A stretch of 64,000 nucleotides of DNA from Thermoflexia bacterium (GTDB taxonomy: Bacteria > Chloroflexota > Anaerolineae > B4-G1 > DUEL01), in NCBI GenBank assembly GCA_011192125.1, contig DUEL01000005.1:1512-65511 (forward strand). The letters are read 5' to 3'. Positions 57,856 to 64,000 of the stretch are shown in pieces. The translations under genes and the position numbers were made by a program. Each line of letters begins with the position of its first letter. The first letter of the stretch is position 1. The notes under the pieces are model-generated. The model was given only the letters and a program-made list of their open reading frames with translations, was not told the DNA's origin and ran no database searches.

Positions 57856-57884
57856 TTGCCCCGCGCCCTCGGGTATGGTATAAT
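57856..57884 (+). promoter_or_regulatory. Promoter TTGCCC-N17-TATAAT for nrdR(-nrdD)
   Basis: Consensus -10 with 17-bp spacing. Confidence 0.5.
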
Positions 57885-57893
57885 AACCATGAA

Positions 57894-57939
57894 CCCCTAG
57901 ATATGGGGGTTTTTGGCTCTAAAGCCCCCATATCTGGCG
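57894..57939 (+). promoter_or_regulatory. Two NrdR-box-like imperfect palindromes immediately downstream of the -10
   Basis: CCCCTAGATATGGGGG and GCCCCCATATCTGGCG, 14-bp gap. Each resembles the NrdR box acaCwAtATaTwGtgt. Confidence 0.55.
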
Positions 57940-57969: not shown

Positions 57970-58422
57970 ATGAAGTGTCCCCACTGTGGGGCTGAACGCA
58001 GCCGGGTCATCGCCACCGACCATGATGCCCGAGGGATCCGCCGTCGGCGGGAGTGCCGCACGTGCGGGCAGCGGTTCACCACGCTGGAGCGGCCGATCCT
58101 CACCACCCCCCTGGTCGTGAAGCGGGACGGCCGGCGAGAGGAGTTCGACCGGCAGAAGGTGCTCTCCGGGCTGCGCACCGCCTGCGCCCGCCGGCCCATC
58201 TCCGCCGATGAACTGGAGCGGCTGGTGGACCGAGTAGAGGACCGCATCCGGCAGATGGGCAAGACCGAGGTCCCCAGCCGCGCCATCGGTGACATGGTGA
58301 TCGCCGAACTGCGAGAACTGGACCCCGTTTCCTACATCCGCTACGCCATTGTCTACCTGGGCCTGGAGGACCTGGAAGCGGTCCGCGCCGAGATCAATCG
58401 GTTGCTGGAAGCCGACCAATAG
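57970..58422 (+). CDS. nrdR: Transcriptional repressor NrdR
   Basis: Zn-ribbon MKCPHCG...CRTCGQRF and ATP-cone. Confidence 0.9.
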   Translation: MKCPHCGAERSRVIATDHDARGIRRRRECRTCGQRFTTLERPILTTPLVVKRDGRREEFDRQKVLSGLRTACARRPISADELERLVDRVEDRIRQMGKTEVPSRAIGDMVIAELRELDPVSYIRYAIVYLGLEDLEAVRAEINRLLEADQ

Positions 58423-58486: not shown

Positions 58487-58596
58487 CCGGGATCAAACGC
58501 GCCAACACCGTCGCAGGGATGTGGAGAACGCGAGGGAACCATCTCAACGCTACGTTCTCCGTGTCCCTGTGGTGAAAGACCTCAGCGAGGCACAAA

Positions 58597-61500
58597 ATGA
58601 GCATAGAAAAGGTCATCAAACGGGACGGGACCACTGTCCCTTTCGACCGAAAACGGATCGAAAACGCCATCTACGCCGCCGCCCGGGCGGTGGGCAGCGG
58701 AGAGGGCCGCCAGTGGGCGGAAACCCTCTCCTGGGCGGTGACGGGCCTCTTGGAGGAGCGGTTCGGCCGCAACGGCTACACTCCCCACGTCGAAGAGATC
58801 CAGGACATCGTGGAGGAGGTACTGATCAAGTCGGGTAACCCCCGCGTCGCCAAGGCCTACATCATCTATCGGCAGAAGCGGGCCGAGGCGCGGGAGGCCC
58901 AACGGATCATGCTGGATGCGGAGAAGTTGGTGGACGACTACCTCCGCCGGGCCGACTGGCGGGTCAACGAGAACAGCAACATGAACTACTCCCTCCAGGG
59001 GCTCAACTTCTACCTGGCCTCCTCCATCGCCGCCCGGTACTGGCTGCAGAAGATCTACCCACCGGAGGTTCAGTCCGCCCACGTCGAAGGGGATCTGCAC
59101 ATTCACGACCTGGGGATGCTCTCGGTCTACTGCTGCGGGTGGGATCTGCTGGACCTCCTGATCCAGGGGTTCGGCGGGGTGCCGGCCAAGATCGAGAGCA
59201 AGCCACCCCGCCACCTCCGCACCGCGCTGGGCCAACTGGTCAACTTCTTCTACACTCTCCAGGGCGAGGCGGCCGGCGCGGTCGCCGTCTCCAACTTCGA
59301 CACCCTCCTCGCCCCCTTCATCCGGTACGACGGGCTGGACTATCCCCAGATCAAGCAGGCGATGCAGGAGTTCGTCTTCAATATTAACGTGCCCACGCGG
59401 GTGGGATTCCAAAGTCTGGTATGGGACGAACTGGTGGTGATCCGACGCAATGGGCGGATCGAGGTCACCGAGATCGGCCGGTTGGTGGACGAACAGTTCG
59501 AACGCAACAAACACCGGGTGCTCAGTCAGGGGAACGGCAGCTTCGCCGTCCCCAACGTTGACGACATTCAAGCGCTGGCGTTCGACGAGACAGGACACGT
59601 GGTATGGGCACCGGTCAAAGCGTTTGTGCGTCACAAGGTACCCAAAGACGCTCCCTTCGTGCGCGTGCGGACCAGCCGGGGAACGGCAAGCGTCTCGTGG
59701 GCCCATTCGCTCTTCGCCTTCCAGAGCCTCAACGGCCGGTTCGATCCACGCCCCATCGCCGCCAGCGAGGTGGAAACCGCTCACGGCAACGCCAAGATAA
59801 CCCCTGAGAACCATTTTATCGCCGTGCGCCGCGTGCCCAACACGGGGAGCCGGGATAGCCTCGACCTGGCCGAACTGATCGATGCCGTGCCTCAGATCGC
59901 CGCACGAGCCCGTGTCCGCGTACCCAACCCTGCCCAGGCCGTCGAGCGCTTGCGGCAACGGGTACGGGAGACCTTCGGCGGTTTCACCCCCTTCTATCTG
60001 GAATACGGTATCAAGGACAAAGGATGCTGGAGGCGGTGGTCAGAAGGCGGTTCCCTTCCCTACCTTGTCTGGCGAGCGTTGGGAGAAGACGAACCGGAGG
60101 CCGAGTTCGCGCTGCGTAACAGTGTATTATGGTACCCCCGCTCCCTGCAAGGAGAATCCCTGGAAGCGTTCGTCCGCCTGCTGGCCTGGTACATCACCGA
60201 AGGCCACAATGACATCACCAACGGTCTCTACATCTCTCAAGCACGAGGTGGAGACCAGGAAGAGATGACCCAGGTGATGGGTACGCTGAAAGCACTGGGA
60301 CGTGTGGAGGAGGCCAAAGGATGGTCCGCCAAAGGAAATCCTACCCAGACCGTCCTCCGGATGGCGGGCAAAGGGCTTCTAGCGGCGCTGATCGGGTATC
60401 TGGGTGGGACCTACAGCACCAACAAGCAGATCCCCTGGTTCGTGTACGAACTGACCCCCACCTTGCAGGAAACGTTTATCGCAACGCTGATGCAGGGTGA
60501 TGGAAGCGAGTACGCGGATCATTTCGACTACCATACCACCTCTAAGAAACTCAGCCTGGGCCTCAGCCTGCTCCTGGCGATGAACGGCTACAAGTTCAGC
60601 GTGTACGAGGTCGCCTACGAGCGGGAAAACTGGAACGACCAATACATCGTCCGGGTCTACAAGGACAAAGAAGCACCTGAGCGCTACGCCATTGGGGATC
60701 TGACAGCACGGATCTGTATCGACCGGGATCCCTTCACTTATGATCGGGAGTACGAATACGACCTGAGCGTGGATGTCAGCCTGGAGAACTTTGTCGGCGG
60801 GAGCGGACTTCTTTGCTTCCACAACACCCCGTTCACCAACATCACGATGGATCTCACTCCCCCCTCTACCCTCAAAGACCTCCCGGTCATCATCGGCGGG
60901 GAGCCGCAGGAGGCGACCTACGGGGAGTTCCAGCGGGAGATGGACCTCCTGAACCGTGCCTTCGCGGAGGTGATGCTGGAGGGGGACGCGAAGGGGCGCG
61001 TCTTCACGTTCCCGATCCCAACCTACAACGTCACCGCCGACTTCGACTGGGACAACCCCAACCTGGAGCCGGTCTGGGCGATGACCGCCCGGTACGGCAT
61101 CCCCTACTGGGCCAACTTCATCAACAGCGATATGCGGCCGGAGGACGCCCGCTCGATGTGCTGCCGCCTCCGGCTGGACACCCGCGAACTCCACAAGCGG
61201 GTCGGCGGGCTCTTCGCCGCTGCCCCCCTCACCGGCTCCGTCGGCGTGGTCACCATCAACCTCCCCCGCCTGGGCTACCTCTCCCGCGACGAGCGGGAGT
61301 TCCGCCACCGGCTGGAACGGCTGATGGAGATCGGCCGCACCAGCCTGGAGATCAAGCGTAAGATGCTGGAGCAACTGACCGAACAGGGCCTCTACCCCTA
61401 CAGCCGTCACTACCTGCGGGGGGTCAAGCAACGGACCGGTCATTACTGGACCCACCACTTCTCCACCATCGGCCTGATCGGCATGCACGAGGCCTGCCGG

Positions 61501-62034
61501 AACCTGCTGGGGGTGGGAATCGACCATCCGGATGGAAAAGCGTTCGCCATTCGGACCCTGAAGTTTATGCGAGAGGTGCTGGCCCGGTTTCAGAAAGAGA
61601 CCGGCCACCTCTACAACCTGGAGGCCACCCCAGCGGAGGGGGCCTCCTTCCGGCTGGCGAAGGCGGACAAGGAGCGGTTCCCGGACATCATCACCTCCGG
61701 CACCGAGACCGCCCCTTACTATACAAACTCCACCCACCTCCCCGTCTCCTTTACCGACGACCTGTTCGAGGTACTGGAGCACCAGGACGACCTGCAGACG
61801 CTCTACACCGGCGGGACGGTGGTTCACATCTTCCTGGGCGAGCAGTTGGACGACTGGCGACAGGCGCGACGGCTGGTGCGGGTGGTGGCGGAGAACTTCC
61901 GCCTCCCCTACTTCACCCTCACCCCCACCTTCAGCATCTGCCCGGTCCACGGCTACATCCCCGGCGAGCACCCCTTCTGCCCCTACGACCACACGCCGGA
62001 GGAACTGGAGCGATTCGGGCTGCGGGTGGGGTGA
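58597..62034 (+). CDS. nrdD: Anaerobic ribonucleoside-triphosphate reductase NrdD (class III) with ATP-cone, interrupted by an intein. The C-terminus ends at ...LRVG, immediately at the expected glycyl-radical motif.
   Basis: ATP-cone N-terminus. NrdD blocks FNINVPTRVGFQ | intein | TPFTNITMD, and CCRLRLDTREL. C-terminal Zn-site region FSICPVHGY...CPYDH. 1145 aa versus about 700 aa for a typical NrdD. Confidence 0.85.
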   Translation: MSIEKVIKRDGTTVPFDRKRIENAIYAAARAVGSGEGRQWAETLSWAVTGLLEERFGRNGYTPHVEEIQDIVEEVLIKSGNPRVAKAYIIYRQKRAEAREAQRIMLDAEKLVDDYLRRADWRVNENSNMNYSLQGLNFYLASSIAARYWLQKIYPPEVQSAHVEGDLHIHDLGMLSVYCCGWDLLDLLIQGFGGVPAKIESKPPRHLRTALGQLVNFFYTLQGEAAGAVAVSNFDTLLAPFIRYDGLDYPQIKQAMQEFVFNINVPTRVGFQSLVWDELVVIRRNGRIEVTEIGRLVDEQFERNKHRVLSQGNGSFAVPNVDDIQALAFDETGHVVWAPVKAFVRHKVPKDAPFVRVRTSRGTASVSWAHSLFAFQSLNGRFDPRPIAASEVETAHGNAKITPENHFIAVRRVPNTGSRDSLDLAELIDAVPQIAARARVRVPNPAQAVERLRQRVRETFGGFTPFYLEYGIKDKGCWRRWSEGGSLPYLVWRALGEDEPEAEFALRNSVLWYPRSLQGESLEAFVRLLAWYITEGHNDITNGLYISQARGGDQEEMTQVMGTLKALGRVEEAKGWSAKGNPTQTVLRMAGKGLLAALIGYLGGTYSTNKQIPWFVYELTPTLQETFIATLMQGDGSEYADHFDYHTTSKKLSLGLSLLLAMNGYKFSVYEVAYERENWNDQYIVRVYKDKEAPERYAIGDLTARICIDRDPFTYDREYEYDLSVDVSLENFVGGSGLLCFHNTPFTNITMDLTPPSTLKDLPVIIGGEPQEATYGEFQREMDLLNRAFAEVMLEGDAKGRVFTFPIPTYNVTADFDWDNPNLEPVWAMTARYGIPYWANFINSDMRPEDARSMCCRLRLDTRELHKRVGGLFAAAPLTGSVGVVTINLPRLGYLSRDEREFRHRLERLMEIGRTSLEIKRKMLEQLTEQGLYPYSRHYLRGVKQRTGHYWTHHFSTIGLIGMHEACRNLLGVGIDHPDGKAFAIRTLKFMREVLARFQKETGHLYNLEATPAEGASFRLAKADKERFPDIITSGTETAPYYTNSTHLPVSFTDDLFEVLEHQDDLQTLYTGGTVVHIFLGEQLDDWRQARRLVRVVAENFRLPYFTLTPTFSICPVHGYIPGEHPFCPYDHTPEELERFGLRVG
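59413..60825 (+). mobile_element. Intein (about 471 aa) inserted in NrdD, with LAGLIDADG-like homing-endonuclease blocks
   Basis: Begins with Ser right after the conserved GFQ and ends ...CFHN followed by +1 Thr resuming the conserved PFTNIT. Internal LAGLIDADG-like blocks LLAWYITEGHNDITNG and FIATLMQGDGS. Confidence 0.65.
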
Positions 62035-62076: not shown

Positions 62077-62361
62077 ATGGCCGAAGAGGTCAAGGGATTT
62101 CCTATCGTCGCACGGGTGATCAGGCAGGAGGGCCACTGCGCCGCAGGCCATAAGGTAGGGGACGAGGTGGTCTTCGACGGGCTGACCGTGCGGGGGAAGA
62201 TCTGCATCAGCGCGCTCTACAGCATGCTCCCCAAGGTCTTCGCGATGCACTACGGAGCCCAGTTCCCGTGGCTGGAGGACCCCGACGTCGCCACCCACGC
62301 CTGCCCGGACGCCTGGAACCCCGTGGTGTTCGAGATCCGCCGCATCCGAGAGGAGGAGTGA
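62077..62361 (+). CDS. Small conserved Cys/His-containing protein (94 aa; possibly a TIGR04076-like family)
   Basis: RBS AGGAG 8 nt upstream. Conserved-looking C/H: EGHCAAGHKVGDEV...ICISALYSMLP...HACPDAWNP. In the same frame as nrdD, 14 codons after its TGA. Confidence 0.55.
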   Translation: MAEEVKGFPIVARVIRQEGHCAAGHKVGDEVVFDGLTVRGKICISALYSMLPKVFAMHYGAQFPWLEDPDVATHACPDAWNPVVFEIRRIREEE

Positions 62362-62362
62362 G

Positions 62363-62920
62363 TTGCCGCTGATCGAGTCCTACCGGCTGCAATTCGACCT
62401 CTCCCCCCACAGCGGCGAGGAACTGGAATACGAGGCGATCGCCCACCTGCCGGTGGACATTTCGGAGGTACTTCCCTATCTCAACACGGTGCTCGGTCGG
62501 GGGGTCTACCTCCCCGACGAACCCGCTCTCTCTTGGCGGCATGAGGGTCGCAACATCGGCTTCTGGCCCGATCGGATCGCAGTAGACCACCTGAAGGACC
62601 GGGACGAGGCCCGACAGGTGATCGAGGAACTGATCGCGCTGGTCAATCGGGTGTGGGATCAGCGAGACGAGATCAAGCCGGATACGACCACCCACCAGTA
62701 CCTGCAACCGCTGGAGGTGTACAAACTGCTCCCGCAGACGAACTGCGGTACGTGCGGCGAGAAGGGGTGCTTCCCCTTCGCCGTCAAACTGGCAGCCGGC
62801 GAGGTCGCGGCGGAGTCGTGCCGTCCTTTGTTCGAGGAGCCGACCTACACGGAGCGATTGGAGCAACTACAGACCCTCCTCGCCGCCAAGTGGCCGTCGT
62901 TGCAGAAAGACGTGCTATGA
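62363..62920 (+). CDS. Fe-S domain protein (C-terminal PF04060-like putative 4Fe-4S domain as in RnfB/CFeSP N-termini). TTG start translationally coupled to the upstream ORF.
   Basis: LLPQTNCGTCGEKGCFPFAVKLAAGEVAAESCRP; RBS AGGAGGAG; TTG 2 nt after the upstream TGA. Confidence 0.55.
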   Translation: MPLIESYRLQFDLSPHSGEELEYEAIAHLPVDISEVLPYLNTVLGRGVYLPDEPALSWRHEGRNIGFWPDRIAVDHLKDRDEARQVIEELIALVNRVWDQRDEIKPDTTTHQYLQPLEVYKLLPQTNCGTCGEKGCFPFAVKLAAGEVAAESCRPLFEEPTYTERLEQLQTLLAAKWPSLQKDVL

Positions 62921-63609
62921 TAGAGAAGACCGTCCACGTGCATCCCATCCCTTTGAGGGTGGCCTGTGCCTATCTGATCACGTCGGACGACGGCACCGTG
63001 CTGGTCGACGCCGGGGCACCCCGCCAGGAGCGGACCATCCTCCAATACCTGGCACAGTTCGGGGGAGGCGACCTGCGGCTGATCTTCATCACCCATGCCC
63101 ACTTCGACCACTACGGGAGCGCGGCGGCGATCCGCCGAGCGACCGGCGCGCCAATCGCTGTCCACGAGGCCGACCGAGACCCGATGGCCCGGGGGGAGAC
63201 GCCCATCGGGACCGCCCGCGGCTACGGCCGCCTGACCTTCCTGCTGGCACCGCTCATCGACAGGTGGTTCCAGCCCGAACCCACCGAAGCCGACGTGGTC
63301 CTGGAGGACGGGGAAGACCTGACCCGCTTCGGCATCCCCGGCCGGGTGGTCCACACGCCTGGACACACCTTCGGCTCCTCCACCCTCCTCCTTGACGACG
63401 GCACCGCCTTCGTCGGCGACCTGGTGGCGACGGTGGTGAGGCCCCGCCTGCAACACCTCTACGCGCAGGATTGGGACCTTCTCCAGCGGAGTTTAGAGCG
63501 GCTGGCGGAACTGGCCCCGAAGCGGGTGTACCCCGGCCACGGCCGTCGCCCCCTTGACGGTTCGACGTTCCAACGACTGGTAGCCAACCGAAATGGAGCC
63601 CGGAGGTAG
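62917..63609 (+). CDS. MBL-fold metallo-hydrolase
   Basis: HxHxDH motif ITHAHFDHYG, plus the downstream His/Asp ligands (HTPGH). Confidence 0.75.
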   Translation: MIEKTVHVHPIPLRVACAYLITSDDGTVLVDAGAPRQERTILQYLAQFGGGDLRLIFITHAHFDHYGSAAAIRRATGAPIAVHEADRDPMARGETPIGTARGYGRLTFLLAPLIDRWFQPEPTEADVVLEDGEDLTRFGIPGRVVHTPGHTFGSSTLLLDDGTAFVGDLVATVVRPRLQHLYAQDWDLLQRSLERLAELAPKRVYPGHGRRPLDGSTFQRLVANRNGARR

Positions 63610-63612
63610 GGT

Positions 63613-64000
63613 ATGGCGAAGTACTTCGTGTTGGTGGCCGGCAACATCGGCGTGGGGAAGACCTCCCTCACCGAGCGGATCGGTGCACGGCTGGGCTGGC
63701 GCACCGCCTTCGAATCGGTCAGCGACAACCCCTACTTGGCCGACTTCTACGCCGACATGCGGAAGTGGTCCTTCCACCTCCAGATCTTCTTCCTCGGCCA
63801 CCGCGCCCGCCAGCACTGGGAACTGGCAACCGCACCGGAGTCGGCCATCGCCGACCGCAGCATCTACGAGGACGCCCACATCTTCGCCCGCGCGCTCCAC
63901 CATATGGGCAACCTCAGCGAGCGGGACTACCTGGCCTACCGCACCGTCTTCGACCTGGTGGTGGAGGGGTTGCCCCGGCCCGACCTCCTCATCTACCTCA
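63613..64000 (+). CDS. Deoxynucleoside kinase (3' partial at window end)
   Basis: P-loop VAGNIGVGKTSL and the E.S/DRS motif (IADRSIYED) of the dNK/dCK/dGK family. Confidence 0.75.
   Translation, partial: MAKYFVLVAGNIGVGKTSLTERIGARLGWRTAFESVSDNPYLADFYADMRKWSFHLQIFFLGHRARQHWELATAPESAIADRSIYEDAHIFARALHHMGNLSERDYLAYRTVFDLVVEGLPRPDLLIYL

Follow-up and report, generated by a model that had tools for sequence, protein, structure and literature searches.

What does a segment of 471 amino acids do in the middle of an anaerobic ribonucleotide reductase gene? The question is raised by nrdD, which codes for the class III ribonucleoside-triphosphate reductase catalytic chain, on contig DUEL01000005.1 of a Thermoflexia bacterium (assembly GCA_011192125.1). 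The window, that is the whole stretch of DNA analysed here, is 64,000 nucleotides long. An earlier note on it had described the segment, at 59413-60825, as an intein lying between the conserved NrdD blocks NINVPTRVGFQ and TPFTNITMD, and the translation of the open reading frame (ORF) agrees with these boundaries. One uninterrupted plus-strand ORF, 58597..62034, codes for a NrdD precursor of 1145 amino acids followed by a TGA stop; the residues directly before the insert are ...EFVFNINVPTRVGFQ and those directly after it are TPFTNITMDL.... Following the analyses described below, we have hardly any doubt that the segment is a bona fide intein, and we are very confident that it is a full-size class-1 intein, with a Hint splicing domain carrying a helical insert and a LAGLIDADG endonuclease, situated in loop 2 of NrdD.

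The segment inserted in nrdD

The host gene itself is easily recognised. The NrdD barrel and finger-loop cysteines are present, with scores of 1008 bits for NF006126 (cut-off 548) and 478 for TIGR02487 (cut-off 326), and Pfam finds an ATP-cone plus NRDD (1e-171) on the precursor, NRDD in two stretches. The C-terminal stretch of NF006126 begins at protein residue 743, which is profile position 265, and therefore the profile runs on across the insert.

Removing exactly 471 residues gives a protein of 674 amino acids, the size predicted earlier for the mature enzyme, with the junction ...RVGFQ↓TPFTN... (↓ marks a junction). A search with this spliced sequence found four intein-free orthologues (P0010-P0013) of exactly 674 amino acids, 96-97% identical over 100% of the length, and more than 100 further orthologues of 673-688 amino acids at 79-85% identity. 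At the DNA level, the spliced window sequence aligns without gaps to the intein-free allele L001 over 2025 nucleotides (92.6% identity), and the empty site in L001 reads GGATTCCAG↓ACGCCGTTCACC. The alignment with intein-free orthologues, which the earlier note had proposed as a check, thus fixes the insertion point precisely, both for proteins of 674 amino acids at 97% identity and for the gapless DNA. An insert is found at this site in about 8 of the top 120 orthologues: among these top matches, the point RVGFQ↓TPFTN is occupied by the same insert in six proteins of 1143-1150 amino acids and by a different one of 324-329 amino acids in two others (P0045 and P0105). With exact, gapless intein-free alleles and variable carriage, the segment is therefore polymorphic, present or absent at one precisely defined point, and not a native domain. 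Orthologues having the segment as a native insertion that lacks the junction residues, which would have spoken for giving up the intein, were not found.

Such an insert might also be produced by an error of assembly or binning, the contig being a chimera of nrdD fragments and foreign DNA. The source is indeed a metagenome-assembled genome, and the GC content at third codon positions (GC3) is lower in the intein (0.73) than in the flanking host parts, or exteins (0.89-0.90). However, the same in-frame architecture recurs in at least 28 species-level assemblies that are independent of one another, as well as in several metagenome contigs that come from different projects, and the reading frame is unbroken over both junctions, which makes an artefact of this kind extremely improbable.

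The nature of the segment was then read from its relatives. Using the intein as a single query, phmmer against the sequences of the PDB returned PI-PkoII, the Tko Pol-2 intein of Thermococcus kodakarensis DNA polymerase, at 8e-7, along with a pair of TFIIB mini-inteins at about 1e-6. A word-indexed homologue search, with the intein alone or with a profile, yielded no more than 9-10 fragments and none of the full-length carriers, which were recovered by an exhaustive search of representatives and a genome scan. The exhaustive search with the intein gave 272 matches at E<=1e-3, eight of them at E<=1e-30, and in the seven best-scoring NrdD matches retrieved (P0131-P0137) every junction present is RVGFQ↓S...HN↓(T/S)PF. 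Twelve family members, some as low as 33% in identity, were aligned (A2), and this alignment served as the basis for a family profile and for an AlphaFold2 model. The match of the profile to PI-PkoII, at 4.8e-23, is made up of three stretches (N-terminal Hint, the region of the second LAGLIDADG motif, and C-terminal Hint). The TFIIB inteins had E-values of 1e-16 to 1e-18, and the profile also matched the TvoVMA, PhoCDC21 and V-ATPase inteins.

The AlphaFold2 model built on A2 predicts a Hint plus LAGLIDADG architecture, with a mean predicted local distance difference test score (pLDDT) of 88.7 and a predicted template modelling score (pTM) of 0.90. A first model, built on a shallow alignment (A1), was discarded at pLDDT 56.4; adding relatives of 33-47% identity raised this value to 88.7. 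In a Foldseek search of the PDB, the best match to the model was PI-PkoII (2cw7) over the whole chain, with an E-value of 6.4e-30 and a query-normalised template modelling score (TMq) of 0.73. It was followed by the endonuclease-bearing TliVMA and PhoVMA inteins, PI-PfuI and PI-SceI, by many mini-inteins, most with a root-mean-square deviation (rmsd) of 1.8-3 Å, and by two LAGLIDADG enzymes that stand alone, I-DmoI and I-Tsp061I (E about 1e-5, target-normalised score TMt about 0.6). The matches to full-size and mini-inteins, at E 1e-30 to 1e-6, argue for a Hint fold in the predicted structure. The duplicated alpha-beta-beta-alpha-beta-beta-alpha core of the endonuclease is present in the model, as judged from the order of secondary structure elements and from Foldseek, and the fold of this domain is also matched by the endonuclease domains of PI-PkoII, PI-PfuI and PI-SceI. 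These profile matches and the confident model support the full-size intein proposed earlier.

Residue conservation was examined in 26 full-length family members from different species. Seven residues are invariant in all 26: S1, S95, H98, G264, D450, H470 and N471. The Ser at the start and the terminal His-Asn that had been pointed out as junction residues are among them, and the residue at +1, Thr in the NrdD of the window, is Thr or Ser in all relatives. The two LAGLIDADG-like motifs are also as described, lying at the ends of predicted helices with their acidic residues kept; E263 is found in 25 of the 26 genomes; D363 is kept in 24 and replaced by Glu in the remaining two. In LAGLIDADG enzymes, the catalytic acidic residues occupy helix-end positions like those of E263 and D363. 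The region of motif 1 reads LLAWYITEGHN, including E263-G264, and that of motif 2 reads FIATLMQGDGSE, including G362-D363-G364. By analogy with PI-PkoII, the helical middle domain is presumably an extra DNA-binding or linker domain.

Not every result favours this identification, and the curated signatures in particular tell against it. Pfam Hint (PF01079) matched the insert at only E 0.005, 17 bits against a cut-off of 29.7, and neither PF14528 nor any other Pfam LAGLIDADG or intein model matched it at E<=1. The NCBIfam models for intein N- and C-termini were silent on it, the only NCBIfam matches being to whole intein-containing proteins. Further, the first position of block B is Ser in all 26 members; this position is Thr in most inteins. 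The block, S95-W-A-H98 here, aligns to T-S-G-H of PI-PkoII, and its Ser is a conservative replacement for Thr. PF14528 does match other inteins of this NrdD family, and the missing matches are a failure of model sensitivity, not a difference of structure. The check with Hint and PF14528 models that had been recommended thus fails, with Hint below the cut-off and no LAGLIDADG match, although the intein reading is right. Since the intein family escapes both the Pfam and the NCBIfam models, domain-based surveys of inteins will miss it; the alignment and profile built here would allow it to be counted. The coordinates of the precursor and its parts are collected in Table 1.

Table 1. Parts of the intein-interrupted nrdD gene in the window; aa, amino acids.
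Feature	Position	Strand	Basis and remarks
nrdD precursor (class III ribonucleoside-triphosphate reductase catalytic chain, intein-interrupted)	58597..62034	+	PF13597 1e-171; ATP-cone 6e-25; NF006126 1008 bits
N-extein, aa 1-272	58597..59412	+	ATP-cone aa 5-96 and first barrel half; ends ...NINVPTRVGFQ, N-side of loop 2
Intein, 471 aa, Ser1...His470-Asn471, precursor residues 273-743	59413..60825	+	SLVWDELVV...GLLCFHN
N-terminal Hint (splicing) part, intein aa 1-~140, including block A SLVWDELVV	59413..59832	+	Aligns to PI-PkoII residues 10-153 and TFIIB mini-inteins; predicted beta-strands; mini-intein rmsd 1.8-3 Å
Block B GTASVSWAHSLF, S95-x-x-H98 in place of the usual TxxH	59680..59715	+	S95 and H98 invariant in alignment A2 and in 26/26 genomes
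Helical middle domain, intein aa ~145-245, between Hint part and endonuclease	59845..60147	+	pLDDT ~90-95; predicted helices 152-223; inside the whole-chain 2cw7 match
LAGLIDADG homing-endonuclease domain, intein aa 246-420	60148..60672	+	PI-PkoII residues 345-415 aligned at motif 2; fold matches to I-DmoI and I-Tsp061I
LAGLIDADG motif 1 LLAWYITEG, putative catalytic E263	60178..60204	+	Closes predicted helix 247-263
LAGLIDADG motif 2 FIATLMQGDG, putative catalytic D363	60475..60504	+	Closes predicted helix 349-361
C-terminal Hint part: block F EYEYDLSVD (D450), block G GLLCFHN (H470-N471)	60748..60825	+	Aligned with C-termini of PI-PkoII, TFIIB and TvoVMA inteins
C-extein, aa 744-1145	60826..62034	+	Thr+1 at 60826-60828 in TPFTNITMD (C-side of loop 2); C855/C856 at 61159-61164; ends ...ERFGLRVG and stop

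Probable splicing and spread of the intein

The position of the intein within the enzyme suggests what is at stake. The junction aligns to Q224↓S225 of Thermotoga maritima NrdD (4COI/4U3E), and the finger-loop cysteines (SMCCRL in the window) align to C329/C330. Loop 2 of the T. maritima enzyme comprises residues 217-228; R221 and Q224 form hydrogen bonds with the base of the substrate, on which Y227 stacks (Aurelius et al., PMC4493059). The loop transmits the allosteric specificity signal to the active site. By this alignment the intein is located inside specificity loop 2, between Q272 and the aromatic F275 of the window protein. The earlier note had put the site next to the finger loop, but the cysteine pair of that loop (residues 855/856 of the precursor, 384/385 of the mature protein) is about 112 residues downstream. 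Because the intein parts the residues that contact the substrate base, the unspliced precursor should be inactive, and splicing would be needed to obtain a working enzyme.

The same consideration bears on another explanation, that the insert is a permanent, non-splicing domain of NrdD, a lineage-specific accessory in loop 2. The insert is under purifying selection and the host gene is clearly functional, with a ratio of nonsynonymous to synonymous substitution rates (dN/dS) of 0.05-0.11 in the exteins, as one might expect of such a domain. However, a permanent insert would split the contacts of loop 2 to the substrate base; it is exactly absent from 97%-identical orthologues; the Hint fold is there together with all splice-junction residues, which are invariant; and unrelated inteins are found at the same and at other sites of the NrdD family. 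We therefore consider a permanent domain very improbable.

It is highly probable, by analogy with known class-1 inteins, that the intein splices. Following the established class-1 pathway, the 1145-residue precursor would undergo an N-O acyl shift at Ser1, and the hydroxyl of Thr+1 would attack in a trans-esterification. Asn471 would then cyclise with the assistance of His470, and an O-N shift would join Q272 to T273, restoring the loop RVGFQ-TPFTN in a NrdD of 674 amino acids.

Perhaps the intein is in addition a post-translational gate on anaerobic deoxynucleoside triphosphate (dNTP) synthesis, with conditional splicing timing the activation or maturation of the enzyme. Splicing could then depend on temperature, on binding of a nucleotide effector or on assembly with the radical peptide. 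Conditional splicing is conceivable because the intein is in loop 2, the radical domain is in trans, purifying selection is strong and one invariant site is used in both Bacteria and Archaea. An intein in Aquifex R2 has reportedly a benefit for iron loading, and the RadA intein is said to be environmentally controlled. Such a gate would be an analogy with these cases, and we think it improbable for the nrdD intein.

With regard to mobility, the free intein would be expected to cut intein-less nrdD genes around ...GGATTCCAG↓ACGCCGTTCACC... and to be copied in by double-strand-break repair. Homing of this kind would explain both the presence or absence of the intein among near-identical genes and its spread over bacterial and archaeal phyla. 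A scan of one genome per species identified 28 carriers, all with the intein at PTRVGFQ↓SL...(F/Y)HN↓(T/S)PF. The bacterial ones belong to Chloroflexota, Actinomycetes, Humimicrobiia, Thermodesulfobacteria and the candidate phyla radiation (CPR; Saccharibacteria, Paceibacterales and Nealsonbacteria), and the archaeal ones to Thermoproteota, Brockarchaeota and Nitrososphaerota. We compared the identity of the inteins with that of 180 flanking extein residues. Between an archaeal and a CPR or unclassified-bacterial genome, the inteins are 67-72% identical and the flanking exteins 54-57%; between Chloroflexi and Thermodesulfobacteria the exteins are 71-73% identical and the inteins 34-37%. This discordance indicates horizontal spread and matches what is expected if the intein moves independently.

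The ratio dN/dS was calculated by the method of Nei and Gojobori for the window against four other carriers. Values were 0.07-0.15 for the whole intein, 0.09-0.20 for the LAGLIDADG domain, 0.03-0.18 for the helical middle domain and 0.05-0.11 for the exteins. In the pair formed by the window and L004, its closest sequenced carrier, dN/dS was 0.073 over the intein as a whole, and its endonuclease domain gave 0.097. In this same pair, the synonymous rate (dS) was about twofold higher in the intein (0.70) than in the exteins (0.26-0.34). This higher dS and the lower GC3 of the intein may result either from a weaker constraint on codon usage or from a history unlike that of the host gene.

Several of these results are less favourable to a mobile intein with a working nuclease than they appear. 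The discordant identities could come partly from differences of rate instead of transfer. Only the dN/dS of the window and L004 is reliable, since dS is saturated (>1) for most pairs, and purifying selection on the endonuclease domain could mirror a structural need for splicing and not nuclease activity. Also, a tblastn search of a phage collection found no phage copy of the intein as a possible vector.

These points lead to the alternative of an intein that still splices but whose endonuclease is dead, the domain being kept for folding of the splicing domain and inheritance now being vertical only. It would agree with the standard LAGLIDADG models not recognising the domain, with the phage vector not being found, and with the Chloroflexota, in which intein identity follows extein identity at a lower level, as vertical descent predicts. 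On the other hand, the putative catalytic residues are kept in relatives down to about 35% identity (E263 in 25/26; D363 in 24/26, otherwise Glu), the endonuclease domain has a dN/dS of 0.09-0.20, intein-free alleles exist at 97% protein identity, and in some cross-domain pairs the inteins are closer than the exteins. On balance a dead endonuclease appears unlikely to us, and a LAGLIDADG nuclease that is still active, as its conserved residues suggest, is the reading we favour with moderate confidence.

The host gene and its surroundings

The intein has consequences for the annotation of this gene. The public NCBI/GenBank protein, P0001 (60265-62034 of the window), is called a 'ribonucleoside triphosphate reductase' and has 589 residues; it has Met285 of the intein as its first residue (MTQVMGTLK...) and leaves out the ATP-cone, the N-extein, 60% of the intein and half the barrel. 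Protein calls shortened in the same way were found in at least three sister genomes (P0002-P0004). Recognising the intein restores a complete, functional nrdD annotation. Two long minus-strand ORFs run over the region (58582..59958 and 60379..61992); we attribute these to the high GC content (66%), as the plus-strand frame is fully explained.

At its other end the NrdD chain stops early. It ends ...CPYDHTPEELERFGLRVG followed by the stop codon (61990-62034), which is position 649 of 684 in the profile NF006126; the RVxGY glycyl-radical motif and the last Cys of the Zn-site are absent, and no glycyl-radical motif was found downstream of nrdD in any frame of the window. In relatives, a separate ORF of 53-64 amino acids (...VPCEVYSRIVGYLRPVQNWHQGKQQEF...; Pfam NRDD) stands beside the radical-SAM activase gene nrdG. 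Its distance downstream of nrdD varies between loci, from 40 bp to about 2.3 kb; it lies at 9134-9319 in L001, 6487-6678 in L005, 9823-10017 in L007 and 8852-9088 in L008. In locus L008, one of those with this separate ORF, the intein is 95% identical and the genes stand in the same order. In the genome of the window the glycyl-radical ORF would start near 64.3 kb, just beyond the window end. Among the more than 100 Anaerolineae orthologues of 673-688 amino acids, every one whose sequence was read ends alike. From these sequences a whole clade of Anaerolineae seems to have a split class III ribonucleotide reductase (RNR), with the radical domain in trans. A literature search found no papers on a split NrdD and glycyl-radical domain.

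The NrdD family is also a hotspot for inteins at other places, with at least four further sites, all in conserved active-site motifs. These are PY↓C(C/V)GWDL (P0131, P0134, P0136), the finger loop at SM↓C...N↓CCRLRL (P0119, P0132) and YYTN↓...GN↓STHLP (P0094, P0131), with one more insertion site between TPF and RSM. Single ORFs of 2400-2500 amino acids have up to four inserts (L011, 2502 amino acids; L018, 2405 amino acids), and L025 is a further locus of this hotspot. Several of the inteins at other NrdD sites end in Gly-Asn and not His-Asn. The one at PY↓CCGWDL (residues ~178-602 of P0131, after ...LGMLSGY; in P0134 after ...GILGPY) appears to start with Thr (TYYGKEV.../TYFGKEV...) and to end NHN↓C, a boundary that comes from comparison with intein-free sequences only. 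To our knowledge, Thr at intein position 1 is very unusual. The insert of P0131 at this site matches PF14528 LAGLIDADG.

Directly upstream of nrdD lies nrdR (Zn-ribbon plus ATP-cone; 57970-58422), for which the ATG at 57970 is the probable true start. Ahead of nrdR stand a TATAAT hexamer (57879-57884) and two inverted repeats of 14-16 bp, CCCCTAGATATGGGGG (57894-57909) and GCCCCCATATCTGG (57924-57937). The repeats look like a pair of NrdR boxes, and the operon would then be autoregulated. Downstream, 62077-63999 contains an ORF of 94 amino acids without a Pfam family, a PF04060 putative Fe-S protein, a metallo-beta-lactamase-fold protein and a deoxynucleoside kinase cut by the window end. The order of the genes downstream of nrdD is kept in L001 and L008. 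The presence of these genes between the nrdD chain and the pair of radical domain and nrdG in relatives suggests that the region is a dNTP-supply gene cluster.

Comparison with known inteins

Selfish elements of this kind are well known, and nothing known about how inteins work is altered by our results; the intein family itself is previously undescribed. Our literature search, which did not extend to InBase and subscription journals, found nothing on this family or on an intein in loop 2 of a cellular NrdD. The points of modest interest are that the family is invisible to the standard models, that its site is invariant across two domains of life, and the extent of intein invasion in this NrdD lineage. 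With discordant intein and extein histories at an invariant site in at least 28 distant species, it can therefore serve to mark gene flow between the two domains in habitats that are anoxic and often thermal. In addition, a cysteine-independent element with Ser1 and Thr+1, probably thermostable and with a predicted long-site endonuclease, is the type of part used in protein engineering.

The closest known system, in both sequence and fold, is PI-PkoII (2cw7/2cw8). Like the nrdD intein, it has a Ser-type N-terminus, an N-terminal hairpin "...G.i.v..IGeLvD...", a block B ending HSLF and a C-terminal ...YDLSV..ENF..G.G....HN, and it combines Hint, an extra domain and a LAGLIDADG endonuclease. The two are only about 17% identical in the structural alignment, and PI-PkoII is longer (537 against 471 amino acids). 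The host of PI-PkoII is a family B DNA polymerase with another insertion site, and PI-PkoII is archaeal only, whereas the nrdD family occurs in both domains. The TFIIB mini-inteins of Methanocaldococcus (Mja and Mvu; 5o9j and 5o9i) are clearly homologous in both Hint halves (profile 1e-16 to 1e-18), with rmsd values of 1.8-1.9 Å for 5o9i and 6.7-6.8 Å for 5o9j. In contrast to the nrdD intein, their solved constructs are without an endonuclease domain, and they reside in other host genes. Similarity was also found to the rpoA'' intein within NCBIfam NF011491, at E 4e-14 over amino acids 1-99 of the intein.

Among inteins of ribonucleotide reductases, those of the class I and II enzymes (RIR1/RIR2) are likewise of the LAGLIDADG type and sit at catalytically essential residues. 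The R2 intein of Aquifex aeolicus, for instance, is placed between the metal ligands E228 and H231 (PMC8772380), and among the intein hosts of bacteria RNR ranks second in frequency (PMC4760082). The host here differs in being a class III enzyme, of the PRK08270 or T. maritima type. A putative intein has been described in nrdD of Clostridium phage c-st (PMC3653736).

Closest in position is the intein of 324-329 amino acids in the two sister Chloroflexi proteins P0045 and P0105. It is inserted at the identical point, RVGFQ↓...↓TPFTN, and its LAGLIDADG region is 22% identical to that of the nrdD intein of the window (pairwise E 2e-6). However, it begins with Cys1, has a C-terminal Gly-Asn before the Thr, is shorter by about 145 amino acids, and its Hint parts have no detectable similarity to those described here. 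Judged on these differences, it is a separate lineage that uses the same putative homing site.

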